Of a stretch of DNA of 55,778 bases, positions 13,854 to 37,929 are shown in pieces. The DNA is from an uncultured archaeon (GTDB lineage Archaea > Asgardarchaeota > Lokiarchaeia > Sigyniarchaeales > SOKP01), in contig CAYLZE010000023.1 in NCBI GenBank assembly GCA_964388035.1, forward strand, positions 1 through 55,778. The letters run 5' to 3'. The first letter of the stretch is position 1; every line of letters begins with the position of its first letter. The notes beneath the pieces are model-generated. The model did not search any database, had not been told where the DNA came from, and saw nothing but the letters and a program-made list of their open reading frames with translations. Made by a program: the position numbers and the translations under genes.

Positions 13854-15326
13854 ATGAATGTAAATAAACTAGAAGAAAATGTTTATGAGATTCCAGCTCA
13901 GACCTTAATGGTCCGGATGCAAAATAAGATAGAGAAATTTAAAATGCTAGTTCCGGCCAAGATTTATGCAAATGAATATATCATGGAACGGATCAAGCAA
14001 GATAAAACCTTAGAACAAATTGCTAATGTAGCGTGCTTACCTGGAATTCAAAAACATGCGATTGCTCTCTCAGATGCGCATCAAGGATACGGATTTTGTA
14101 TAGGTGGAGTGGCGGGAACTGATGCTGAAACGGGGATGATATCTCCTGGAGGTGTAGGTTATGATATTAATTGTGGAGTGAGACTTCTATGTTCAAATCT
14201 ATATGAGAAAGACATCATAACAGATCTTCCCGAAATATTAGATACAATCTTCAGAAAAGTGCCTTCAGGTTTAGGTTCTGAAGGAAAAATAAAAATGAGT
14301 TATTCTGAATTAGATTCCGTTTTAAATAATGGTTTAAATTGGGCTCTTGAAAATGATTATGCAATTAAAAAAGACCTGGAACATTGTGAAGAACGGGGCT
14401 GGTTACCCAACGGTAATTCCGATTTAATTTCACAGCGGGCAAAAGAAAGAGCAATTTCACAATTAGGATCATTAGGTAGCGGAAATCATTTTTTAGAAAT
14501 TCAGAAAGTTGATGAAATATTTAATGAATCTATTGCAAAACAATTAGGAATCACGGATAAAAATCAAATTACCGTCATGATTCACACCGGGAGTAGGGCA
14601 TTAGGTCATCAGGTTTGTACTGATGCACTCCGTAATATTGAACGAGCAATGAAAAAATACCATGTGAATGTTCCTGACAGAGAACTAGCTTGTGTTCCTG
14701 CAAATACGAAAGAGGCGAAAGAATATCTGAGTCAAATGGCTGCTGCGGCTAATTTCGGCTTCTGTAATAGACAATTGATTACTCATTGGGTACGGGAAGC
14801 TTTTAGTGAAATTAAGAAAAAAGATTTGGATGATTTGGATATGCATCTAATTTATGGGGTATGCCATAATATTTTAAAGATTGAAGAACACGATGTAGAA
14901 GGGAAAACGATGAAATTAAATGTTCATCGAAAGGGTGCCACCAGGGCTTTTCCCCCACATCATCCCGTGCTTCCCAATGATTATAAGGAGATTGGACAAC
15001 CCGTTCTCATTCCAGGAACAATGGGCTCAGCATCCTATTTATGCGTGGGAAAACCCAAGGCAATGGAGTTATCTTTCGGTTCCACGGCTCACGGTTCTGG
15101 GAGAGTCATGTCCCGTTCAAAGGCTATTAAAAAATACCGCGGTTCTGAAGTGAAAAAGGCATTGAGTAGGCAAGGCATTTTAATAAAAGCCGCCTCGATG
15201 AAAGTAATTGCTGAAGAAGCACCCGGAGCTTATAAAGATATTGATCAGGTAGTAAACGTGAGCCATGATTTAGAAATCATCGAGAAAGTAGTCCGGTTAT
15301 TACCAATTGGAGTAGTTAAGGGATAA
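13854..15326 (+). CDS. rtcB: tRNA-splicing ligase RtcB
   Basis: DAHQGYGFCIGGV, GGVGYDINCGVR, GSGNHFLE, HTGSR, HRKGATRA, HGSGR, EEAPGAYK. Confidence 0.98.
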   Translation: MNVNKLEENVYEIPAQTLMVRMQNKIEKFKMLVPAKIYANEYIMERIKQDKTLEQIANVACLPGIQKHAIALSDAHQGYGFCIGGVAGTDAETGMISPGGVGYDINCGVRLLCSNLYEKDIITDLPEILDTIFRKVPSGLGSEGKIKMSYSELDSVLNNGLNWALENDYAIKKDLEHCEERGWLPNGNSDLISQRAKERAISQLGSLGSGNHFLEIQKVDEIFNESIAKQLGITDKNQITVMIHTGSRALGHQVCTDALRNIERAMKKYHVNVPDRELACVPANTKEAKEYLSQMAAAANFGFCNRQLITHWVREAFSEIKKKDLDDLDMHLIYGVCHNILKIEEHDVEGKTMKLNVHRKGATRAFPPHHPVLPNDYKEIGQPVLIPGTMGSASYLCVGKPKAMELSFGSTAHGSGRVMSRSKAIKKYRGSEVKKALSRQGILIKAASMKVIAEEAPGAYKDIDQVVNVSHDLEIIEKVVRLLPIGVVKG

Positions 15327-25333: not shown

Positions 25334-25470
25334 GCAGGAGTCGCCAAGCTCGGTCAATGAGCAAGATGTGCTCGACTAACGGCGCTAGACTGAGGCTCTA
25401 GTGACATAGGTCTACGTGGGTTCGAAAAGATCACGTCTCCTCGACGATTTCTGAAATCCCACCTCCTGCA
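25334..25470 (+). tRNA. tRNA-Leu(GAG) with D-loop intron (25358-25379) and T-loop intron (25427-25456)
   Basis: Acceptor GCAGGAG/CTCCTGC, anticodon arm CTAGA-CTGAGGC-TCTAG, long variable arm, both inserts form BHB-like motifs. Confidence 0.92.
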
Positions 25471-25718
25471 TTCTAACTTTTCTTTTATTGGGATTTATTC
25501 ATGATCAAGAGTGATTTTATTGTTCCAGAGTGGTTATTATCTTTTAATTGAAGATCAAGTTATACCATGGTACTATCTTCTAACCTTTCATGTTTTAATT
25601 TCAATCATGCTAATAATTACCGATTTTGAATAAAAGTAAATAAATTTTTATTGATAAACTTACATGGTTTTATGTAAGAATCAATGGATTCAAGAAAAAT
25701 TCCTATCGAATAAAAGGA

Positions 25719-26906: not shown

Positions 26907-27022
26907 AGCCCCTGGAGGGATTTGAACCCTCGGCAAATTGATGTTTCTTTCCTAATTCTTGCCATGCTTAACAAGAATTAGTATATACGAATCAATCACT
27001 CTACCACCTGAGTTACAGAGGC
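26907..27022 (-). tRNA. tRNA-Thr(CGT) with canonical 37/38 intron (26943-26985)
   Basis: GCCTCTG/CAGGGGC acceptor, ATTGA-TTCGTA|A-TCAAT anticodon arm, GAGGGTTCAAATCCCTC T arm. Confidence 0.93.
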
Positions 27023-35794: not shown

Positions 35795-36571
35795 ATGCAC
35801 TTTTTAGAGCAAGTGGTAAATACACCACAATTAAAAGATCCAGCGGAAAAGCACATGGACGTTCATCGTCACTTCACTAAATATTCTCGTGGGGTATTTT
35901 CGGGTCCTGCCTTAAAGATCGCGAAAACCAGTTCAAAAATCACATTAAAAGGTAGTCGAGACTATGAAGATTTGATACAAGAAATCGTGATTCAAGCTCT
36001 TCCTGAAAGTAACATTAGTGTAAAGGGGGTTTTAATCACTACAGAAGATATCTCCGATAGAATAGCGGACTTAGGGTTGACTTGGGGGCTCAAAGCATCA
36101 ACAGGTCAAACCAAGAATTTTAAGGCAGATTTCTCGGAGGAAGTAAGTAGAGAAAAATTATTAAAAATAATAGAAGCTTTCAGAACCTATGCATATTTAC
36201 TAATAAATTTTAAAAATGATGCTAACTATAAGGTTTCCACGAAAATAAGACTCCCGCAACCCTCTAAAAAACAACCCATGGAGGAAGATATTAACTCGAT
36301 GGTAAATTTTTGTACCGGGGTTTTAAAAACTAACAAGGATAATGTTAATAGAGTGATTAAATCCGCTCTTTTTGATTTTCAAGGTGAAATTCCTGAAGAA
36401 TGGAAGCAAATTTCCCTCATGAATAATTATAAAATATCAGACCTTGAAGTTCCGAAAAACTTGAAAGATTCGAAGTTATTACGAAGCCTGGCAATAAGAA
36501 AAGGGGAATTAGAGCGCATCATAAGCGTGGATGGTAAAGATTTTAAAAAGCAATACTCTATTGTTGTATGA
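35795..36571 (+). CDS. hypothetical protein
   Basis: 258-aa ORF with AGGAG SD; VHRHFTKYSRGVFSGP motif; family not recognised. Confidence 0.75.
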   Translation: MHFLEQVVNTPQLKDPAEKHMDVHRHFTKYSRGVFSGPALKIAKTSSKITLKGSRDYEDLIQEIVIQALPESNISVKGVLITTEDISDRIADLGLTWGLKASTGQTKNFKADFSEEVSREKLLKIIEAFRTYAYLLINFKNDANYKVSTKIRLPQPSKKQPMEEDINSMVNFCTGVLKTNKDNVNRVIKSALFDFQGEIPEEWKQISLMNNYKISDLEVPKNLKDSKLLRSLAIRKGELERIISVDGKDFKKQYSIVV

Positions 36572-36779: not shown

Positions 36780-37406
36780 ATGGAAGTAAGAATGGAAGAA
36801 TTAAATAAATACTTGGAATCTTTTCTTTTCATTATAGGAGGAGATATTGCCATAGAAGTCGGGAAAGAACTGATTCTTTCAGCGAACGAAAACATCACCG
36901 ACGAGGAAATTACGGAGAATATCAAGGAGCGGATAAAAAAAAGCGGTAAAAAAGTCGATTTCGAGCCAGATGATGAAGAAATCTTGAAATTGAATACCGT
37001 TCGAAAAACTTTATATAAATTATATGGAGAAAAACTTGCACAATTCCGAAGAATTCGTGATAAATCCACGGGAAAGTTTTTGCGTTTAGCATGAACTCTG
37101 GAATGGTTTATATATTTCTGGTGGCACGAATTCGATCGAATTGAAGAATTATTATTAGAAAAGAAGAAGTTAGTCCAAAGAAAATTGAGGGATAAGCTGA
37201 GATTCGAGGAAAATAATTATTTCTTCGTGTGCGAGAGTTGCCAGGATAAAACAGTCAAATATAATTTTGATGAGGCGTATGAACTCAATTTTAGATGTCC
37301 CAAATGTGGAAATGCCCTTAAAGCTCAGGACAATCAGGCAATCATCGAGTTACTAAAGAAAAGAATAATCATCTCAGAGCAATTTAAAATTACTTCGGAT
37401 ACGTAG
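36780..37406 (+). CDS. tfe: transcription factor E alpha (TFE), interrupted by a 30-nt BHB-type intron; 198 aa if spliced
   Basis: ORF-track pieces 36780-37094 and 37185-37406 share one frame; TDEE..LNTVRKTLYKLY wHTH, RDKSTG|WFIYFW after removing 37074-37103, FVCESC..FRCPKCG zinc ribbon. Confidence 0.92.
37074..37103 (+). other. putative archaeal (BHB) intron in tfe mRNA
   Basis: 30 nt, contains in-frame TGA (37092-37094), hairpin AGTTTTTGC/GCATGAACT, 3-nt bulges GA|A and AA|T flanking ACGG/CTGG. Confidence 0.8.
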
Positions 37407-37410
37407 TTAA

Positions 37411-37929
37411 TCATTTTTTTTTCTTTATGAAAGCAATATCGCCTAAATTGCTTCCTGTTGATTTCTTTAAGTATCCCTCGTAATCAACCGGAGTTTCCTT
37501 TACTTCATTTACGATTTTAATCCCTAGAAATTTTTCTATTTTTCGAGCTAAAGGTATTGGGGGTTTAATCTTTCCCGCTTCAATACGACGAATAAGAGAA
37601 CCCCTTTCATGAATCTTTTGGGCAAATTTTTCTTGAGTGAGATTCTTCCGCATGCGAGCTTGATGTATTTTTATTGCGTAATCTTCTGCGATTTCCGTGG
37701 AAGGTTCTTCAATTTCCTTATCATACACACGGGATTTCGTTTTATTAACAGGGGTTGATGTTGAGGGTTTTCTTGTAGAGGGAGTTTGAGGATTTTCGAC
37801 GATCCTTTTCCCGTATTGAGCACAATTTGGACATACTATCATTTTAGCTCCCTCTATTATTACGGTTTGCCCTTTTCCCCATATGATCGAACCACATAAT
37901 TCACATTCGGTGGAACGAAGTTTCGACAT
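37411..37929 (-). CDS. archaeal multiprotein bridging factor aMBF1
   Basis: CELCG..IEGAKMIVCPNC Zn ribbon plus Cro-type HTH (LTQEKFAQKIHERGSLIRRIEAG), LGDIA tail. Confidence 0.93.
   Translation of the reverse strand: MSKLRSTECELCGSIIWGKGQTVIIEGAKMIVCPNCAQYGKRIVENPQTPSTRKPSTSTPVNKTKSRVYDKEIEEPSTEIAEDYAIKIHQARMRKNLTQEKFAQKIHERGSLIRRIEAGKIKPPIPLARKIEKFLGIKIVNEVKETPVDYEGYLKKSTGSNLGDIAFIKKKK

Follow-up and report, generated by a model that had tools for sequence, protein, structure and literature searches.

A candidate tRNA-type mini-intron within the tfe mRNA of an Asgard archaeon of the class Lokiarchaeia

Splicing inside an archaeal coding sequence has been confirmed, in the literature that we searched, for cbf5 only (PMC7714728, PMC2738675), and a 2020 paper named this gene as the only other archaeal mRNA with a reported bulge-helix-bulge (BHB) intron besides its own case, which is situated in a 5' untranslated region (PMC7714728). 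Here we describe a candidate intron of this type, 30 nt in length, which interrupts the gene of the basal transcription factor TFE (tfe) of an uncultured archaeon of the order Sigyniarchaeales. The gene lies in a window of 55,778 nt (the whole stretch of DNA analysed, i.e. contig CAYLZE010000023.1 of assembly GCA_964388035.1), and the proposed intron occupies positions 37074-37103 of its forward strand. The initial annotation of the window, made from the letters alone, had interpreted these 30 nt as a tRNA-type (BHB) intron removed without a spliceosome. Our literature search returned no paper on a tfe intron or on BHB introns in Asgard mRNAs, and a 2026 preprint dealing with the tRNA introns of Asgard archaea is silent on mRNA (bioRxiv 10.64898/2026.10.13.758758).

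The intron of cbf5 is known from Crenarchaeota (Desulfurococcales and Sulfolobales; Watanabe 2002, Yokobori 2009, PMC2738675). Like the tfe insert, it is short, located within the coding region and relaxed in its BHB motif, with cuts between the second and third bulge residues and a dependence on two-subunit EndA. Its distribution is also patchy, with exact loss in some lineages (PMC2738675), and its host gene has likewise been mis-annotated as two open reading frames (ORFs). The two cases differ in the gene (a basal transcription factor in the case of tfe) and in the phylum (Asgard archaea, Promethearchaeota). The cbf5 intron is placed at a catalytic codon, whereas that of tfe falls in the wing loop of a winged-helix domain and, unlike the former, is flanked by a 9-bp helix between the exons (hereafter the clamp) with frozen synonymous sites. 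Finally, splicing of cbf5 has been shown experimentally, whereas for tfe we infer it from the comparison of sequences.

Noncanonical tRNA introns of Asgard archaea and Thermoproteales (Marck and Grosjean 2003; bioRxiv 10.64898/2026.10.13.758758) resemble the tfe insert in their size (approximately 30 nt), their relaxed BHB motif and the enzymes presumed to process them. The host of the latter, however, is an mRNA devoid of a tRNA body, for which the clamp may substitute, and its flanking helices have to be encoded in synonymous codon positions. The BHB intron in the 5' untranslated region of Haloferax volcanii HVO_1309 (PMC7714728) is, as proposed for tfe, an EndA substrate within an mRNA, from which a circular intron is expected; it is 46 nt long and lies in an untranslated leader, whereas the tfe insert breaks the reading frame, so that the protein would need splicing. 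An analogy can also be drawn with XBP1/HAC1, where a short intron leaves the mRNA of a transcription factor without a spliceosome and translation of the unspliced form gives a different product. RtcB, the presumed ligase for tfe, ligates these exons in metazoa. IRE1, however, cuts within the 7-nt loops of twin hairpins, while EndA would presumably act in BHB bulges, and the tfe junctions are indeed found in bulges flanking one helix rather than in hairpin loops. The IRE1 system is in essence one of stress regulation, and the resemblance covers RNA processing alone.

The first tfe ORF encodes 104 aa and terminates at a TGA codon inside the insert; the frame reopens at position 37104. Removal of 37074-37103 (or, equivalently, of 37073-37102, as an A flanks both sides) joins GGA to TGG and yields a TFE of 198 aa, for which two NCBIfam TFE equivalogs are the top matches. 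Exon 1 corresponds to positions 39-67 of the Pfam TFIIE_alpha profile and exon 2 to positions 69-105. When compared with solved TFE chains (6pln, 6kf4), the ten inserted codons stand opposite a 10-residue gap between ..ETG and WYYYYW, which places the insert at the tip of the winged-helix wing. The arrangement described in the initial annotation, i.e. two ORFs in the same frame split by 30 nt with a TGA, was found exactly as claimed with respect to coordinates, helices and bulges, and the translation, the two Pfam halves and the gap in the solved structures agree with its 198-aa product. The unspliced mRNA had been assigned a 104-aa product consisting of the winged helix only; this length was correct, but the domain would be incomplete, since an intron at the tip of the wing deprives this product of the second wing strand.

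TFIIE_alpha exceeded its cut-off at this locus only, in the whole of the source assembly (5.47 Mb, 96.7% complete), and therefore the other intact tfe that would have spoken against splicing is absent from it. One weak second match, considered as a spare tfe, was rejected, as reading of its ORF identified a 124-aa DtxR-like repressor. Gene callers divide tfe into two ORFs and the annotation reads "hypothetical protein".

The same insert was identified in ten further tfe alleles, giving a set of 11 distinct alleles from independent assemblies (NCBI metagenome-assembled genomes, ENA, JGI and Logan). In each case it is located at the junction of ..STG and W.., always between GGA and TGG. Its length is 30 nt in six alleles and 31 nt in five, and all 11 inserts contain an in-frame stop: TGA in the source assembly (G000) and its congener G001, TAG in ERZ27283517, and TAA in the others. 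Exon 2 is conserved and open to its normal end in every allele whose contig extends there. The 31-nt inserts also shift the frame; since they combine this shift with a stop, only exact excision would yield TFE from them. The genes neighbouring tfe are kept in the intron-bearing loci of other genera, which identifies the interrupted gene as the orthologous tfe.

The distribution of the insert is patchy. Among 41 relatives, the tfe of the congener G001 was interrupted at this codon junction by 30 nt that include a TGA. When 135 species representatives of the family were searched, 127 gave a tfe match; four of them carried the insert, and it was precisely absent from the remaining 123, so that the comparison of relatives proposed as a check in the initial annotation returned both states. 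The four carriers are both species of the source genus and two of the nine tfe-bearing genomes (10 searched) of another genus, in which tfe was seen as two half matches. A search with the 104-aa fragment revealed many shortened TFE N-termini that end a few unconserved residues past ..RDKSTG, and further alleles were taken from the contigs encoding them. Pattern scans for the exon-1/intron boundary in genome and metagenome contigs recovered only the known alleles G001, G054 and G055, together with chance bacterial matches.

Two other observations concern tfe. On contig L049 (ENA ERZ23495098, 852 nt, protein P0020) the gene is normal up to ..FRRIRDK, after which an unrelated, AT-rich sequence follows without an exon 2 in the vicinity; the contig may be chimeric or rearranged, or it may carry a much longer insert, and it was excluded from the allele set as a chimera or rearrangement. 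Moreover, four of the six genomes of one genus (G007, G018, G044 and G047, two of which are 90-94% complete) contain no tfe recognisable by protein or Pfam family; they may lack the gene, or it may be unassembled or too broken to be recognised.

Alignment of the 11 alleles provided strong comparative evidence for the proposed structure. Standard pairs occupy 88.2% of the cells of the whole structure, compared with 16-41% in registers displaced by 1-3 columns. Double changes, i.e. the compensatory substitutions expected of a BHB intron, affect five pairs (14 cells), and none of 500 shuffles matched the observed pairing, the number of double-change cells or the covariation score. The inner hairpin is predicted in every allele and has been almost wholly rewritten between lineages with its nine pairs kept, four of them with changes on both sides. 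Within the central helix, the pair 37070/37099 is GC in seven alleles, GU in two and AU in two, while the pair at its outer end (37068/37101) is A.G in ten alleles and A-U in the JGI allele. The covariation that the initial annotation had suggested looking for is thus present in both the inner hairpin and the central helix.

According to the established rule, each cut falls between the second and third bulge residue (PMC2738675). The helices, bulges and cut sites specified in the initial annotation are all present in the sequence, and in the six 30-nt alleles the predicted cuts coincide with the sole junction that restores the frame.

The clamp is a feature absent from the initial description. 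Its nine pairs are formed in all 11 intron-bearing alleles, compared with a mean of approximately six of nine in 23 intronless alleles, only one of which reaches nine, and all minimum-energy folds, like the RNAalifold consensus, include both the clamp and the inner hairpin. The codons that encode it show little variation: the upstream Ile-Arg codons (ATT CGT) are identical in the 11 intron-bearing alleles and the downstream His-Glu-Phe codons nearly so. The Arg codon is CGT in 11/11 intron-bearing versus 1/21 intronless alleles, and the His codon is CAC in 10/11 versus 4/21. Over the 18 flanking codons the synonymous codon difference among intron-bearing alleles is 0.29, versus 0.46 in the rest of the gene; the corresponding values for intronless alleles are 0.48 and 0.46. 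The clamp might be an mRNA stand-in for the tRNA body, joining the splice sites and holding the exons for ligation, and offers a testable rule for how an mRNA replaces that body in cleavage and ligation. One intronless tfe (L006, G011:C27) keeps all nine clamp pairs and ATT CGT, with the junction codons for Ser, Thr and Gly changed, a pattern possibly left by an exact loss of the intron in recent times.

Both enzymes expected of a host of BHB introns, EndA and RtcB, are encoded in the genome. The tRNA_int_endo profile detected two EndA paralogues of approximately 200 aa (100.7 and 69.8 bits), whose genes occupy C146:8038-8646 and C33:37574-38176; by reading of their sequences, the catalytic His is kept in one and absent from the other. 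This is consistent with the broad-specificity two-subunit form of the enzyme, which accepts relaxed motifs (PMC5829648, PMC2724299). The gene of the presumed ligase, rtcB, lies in the window itself (Table 1).

Taken together, these data suggest that, in the pre-mRNA transcribed from the single tfe gene, 37074-37103 is a BHB-type mini-intron, with a probability of roughly 0.82. Removal of the insert at the RNA level by some route appears highly probable, and splicing by EndA and RtcB is a likely means of it. The spliceosome-free removal put forward in the initial annotation is thus supported by 11 stop-bearing alleles, five of them with frameshifts, as well as by covariation, synonymous constraint, the single gene copy and the presence of both enzymes.

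Table 1. Positions of the proposed tfe intron, its structural elements and the presumed ligase gene (numbering of the window)
Feature	Position	Strand	Basis
tfe, whole gene	36780-37406	+	ORF list
tfe exon 1, 98 codons, ending ..RDKSTG at the winged-helix wing tip	36780-37073	+	ORF list, translation, Pfam TFIIE_alpha profile 39-67
Putative mini-intron, 30 nt	37074-37103	+	Frame and wing motif restored on removal; gap in homologues and structures; insert in ten other alleles
In-frame TGA within the putative intron	37092-37094	+	ORF list, translation
tfe exon 2: wing strand WFIYFWW, helix, zinc ribbon; stop 37404-37406	37104-37406	+	Pfam profile 69-105 and zinc-ribbon matches
Exon-exon clamp helix, 5' strand, 9 bp	37051-37059	+	Pairs with 37125-37133
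Outer BHB helix h, 5' strand, 5 + 2 pairs, bulged U at 37065	37060-37067	+	Pairs with 37105-37111; 89.6% of cells paired, 11 alleles
Central helix H, 5' strand	37068-37071	+	Pairs with 37098-37101; 3/4 paired, one A.G
5' three-base bulge, predicted cut 37073/37074	37072-37074	+	Sequence
Inner hairpin h', 9 pairs, 5-nt loop; 8/9 paired in this allele	37075-37097	+	92.9% of cells paired, 11 alleles
Central helix H, 3' strand	37098-37101	+	Allele alignment
3' three-base bulge (four bases in 31-nt alleles), predicted cut 37103/37104	37102-37104	+	Sequence
Outer helix h, 3' strand	37105-37111	+	Allele alignment
Exon-exon clamp, 3' strand (His-Glu-Phe codons)	37125-37133	+	Pair counts, folds
rtcB, presumed exon ligase	14016-15323	+	Pfam RtcB 552.7 bits, sole match in genome

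Several results weigh against this interpretation. Taken alone, the 68-nt stretch folds no better than its shuffles (z = -1.0), and hence the case rests on the comparison with relatives. Only two of the 11 alleles, that of the window not among them, have the BHB core as their minimum-energy fold, and nearest-neighbour rules favour a rival pairing (37066-37069/37121-37124) by 7-14 kcal/mol in the other nine. The core itself is relaxed. Its central helix comprises three pairs and an A.G, the short metagenomic allele ERZ23498458 retains only two of the four central pairs, and in the 31-nt alleles, which have a four-base 3' bulge, the cut that restores the frame departs from the strict rule by one base. 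The strict hBHBh' form is therefore not represented, given the A.G in ten of 11 central helices and the four-base bulge in five alleles. The locus does correspond to the relaxed form recognised by two-subunit EndA, in which a minimum of one well-formed 3-nt bulge adjoins a short central and a flanking helix, with the second site placed symmetrically in a bulge or loop: the 5' bulge is situated between helix H and the 9-bp hairpin, and the 7-bp outer helix closes the 3-nt bulge that contains the 3' site. Furthermore, alleles were located via truncated ORFs, so the universal presence of a stop is partly an ascertainment effect, and the frozen exon flanks could in part reflect shared descent of an intron cassette and not selection. 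Finally, a survey of 520 TFE relatives in the protein collection revealed no spliced, cDNA-like form, the closest relative of the window's protein being 73% identical; a 95% match to G054, considered as a spliced, cDNA-derived TFE, was traced to an intronless genomic contig.

The rival pairing raises the question of whether the insert is excised from RNA at cuts defined by another nuclease or another structure, namely the clamp extended by 37066-37069/37121-37124. Its thermodynamic preference in nine of 11 alleles is shared by the RNAalifold consensus, and the misfit of the 31-nt alleles to the rule that each cut falls two bases into the bulge also speaks for such a route. In the rival fold, however, the junctions fall within a large loop, where no feature would define exact cuts, and this fold gives no account of the GC/GU/AU changes and the replacement of A.G by A-U in the central helix, which only the BHB model explains. 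As no other exact pathway of RNA excision and ligation is known in archaea (PMC7714728), we regard a non-BHB route as improbable.

Explanations that dispense with splicing fare less well, since exact removal of the insert accounts for the stops, the frameshift and the intact exon 2, and decay, readthrough, hopping or an artefact cannot. The annotation of two ORFs by gene callers, and the fact that TFE is not indispensable in every archaeon, would suit a decaying pseudogene or a split gene producing two polypeptides. Yet the same break recurs in 11 alleles at no fewer than four separate places of the TFE tree with both halves intact, no second tfe is available, and the covariation of the hairpin is not a product of decay. 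In addition, full conservation extends over the 27 codons that separate the insert from the earliest possible start in exon 2 (TTG at 37185), and these codons must therefore be translated. This alternative is very improbable. Slightly less credible still is the notion that the ribosome copes with the insert, whether by readthrough of the stop codon or by hopping of the phage T4 gene 60 type. The last exon-1 codon is GGA, a second GGA is found close to the 3' end of the 30-nt insert and, like in gene 60, a hairpin follows the take-off site; the stop, however, comes six codons after GGA, the downstream GGA is out of frame, so that by reading of the sequence landing on it would resume translation in the wrong frame, and the 31-nt alleles are without such a GGA. 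Readthrough would add ten unconserved residues at the wing tip and leave the 31-nt frameshift unfixed, and neither mechanism suits a stop whose identity varies among the alleles (TGA, TAA, TAG). An assembly or sequencing artefact could be suspected in a fragmented metagenome-assembled genome with 7% contamination such as the source assembly, but the ten other alleles, from unrelated projects and assemblers, carry the insert at the same junction, and their hairpins differ in sequence while structure and position are the same; the probability of an artefact, a concern of the initial annotation, is practically negligible.

Under the BHB-intron interpretation, the 9-bp clamp and the 7-bp outer helix would bring the two exons together in the transcript, and the 9-bp intron hairpin would stack on the short central helix. 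Both splice sites would then be presented in small bulges on opposite strands, where a two-subunit EndA could cut after the second base of each bulge. RtcB would ligate the exon ends while the clamp still holds them, and the 30-nt intron would be released, probably as a circle. Full-length TFE would arise from the spliced mRNA only, as the unspliced form stops after 104 codons. The occurrence of cleavage and ligation, the identity of EndA as the nuclease and the role of the clamp are what we infer in this scheme. It seems rather unlikely that splicing of tfe is both rate-limiting and regulated, with the level of TFE set by the tRNA-splicing machinery; a possible route of such regulation is competition between the BHB fold and the 37066-37069/37121-37124 pairing. 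An XBP1/HAC1-like switch in tfe is pure conjecture; if true, regulated tfe splicing would represent an archaeal forerunner of RtcB-dependent control of this type in the lineage closest to eukaryotes.

The interrupted gene encodes a core transcription factor shared with eukaryotes (TFIIE alpha), and its host belongs to the archaeal group closest to them. The proposed intron, moreover, is not the only one of its kind in the genome. A MoCF_biosynth gene (L065, C47:27267-28223, minus strand) contains a 30-nt insert between locus positions 616 and 645, with exon 1 ending at Pfam profile position 66 and exon 2 starting at 67, and the minimum-energy fold of this insert shows a textbook BHB and, in addition, its own long helix between the exons. 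The tfe case is thus one member of a class of mini-introns in this organism, and the two together suggest that some Asgard protein genes routinely need RNA splicing, which bears on the origin of intron-containing genes and of separate RNA processing. Standard gene callers split or truncate such genes. A genome-wide scan for BHB motifs with joined ORFs recovered both tfe and the C47 case, the latter confirmed by Pfam; it returned 411 real versus 578 decoy candidates (28 versus 56 after tightening), which is too noisy for counts, and A-rich coding DNA makes the decoy pairing rule itself an unreliable control. A zinc alcohol dehydrogenase-like gene (L066, C50:18835-20114, plus strand) has, close to its start, a candidate 29-nt hairpin insert between locus positions 235 and 266; exon 2 begins at position 15 of the ADH_N profile and exon 1 is too short for a Pfam match.

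Analysis of the TFE tree revealed that the distribution of the 11 intron-bearing alleles requires approximately five changes, at least three of them on branches with good support. An intronless species branches from within the 31-nt alleles; it differs from its neighbour at 36% of codons, and thus the loss was not very recent. BLAST of the tfe intron against the whole genome revealed no copy beyond chance. Its descent from a tRNA-Leu T-loop intron, as well as its recent spread, were considered and received no support from these comparisons.

Upstream of tfe lies a gene (35795-36571, plus strand) encoding a 258-aa protein without a Pfam match. The downstream gene (37411-37929, minus strand) is convergent and encodes a protein with a zinc ribbon and an HTH_3 domain, MBF1-like by reading of its sequence; the gene of a proteasome-activating AAA ATPase comes next.

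The window also holds tRNA and 23S rRNA introns. At approximately 25415-25475 (plus strand) a T-arm-like sequence, GGGTTCGAA .. ATCCC, is split by an insert of approximately 30 nt that starts with AAG and ends with CTGAA. No Rfam tRNA was found at this site, and the insert shows no significant BLAST similarity to the tfe intron; it agrees with the tRNA-Leu T-loop intron of the initial annotation. ARAGORN at its default settings detected no tRNA in the window, and Rfam as well as ARAGORN with introns allowed detected one. This is a tRNA at 26907-27022 (minus strand; Rfam 53 bits), assigned by ARAGORN as tRNA-Thr (CGU), which carries an insert of approximately 43-45 nt in its anticodon loop.
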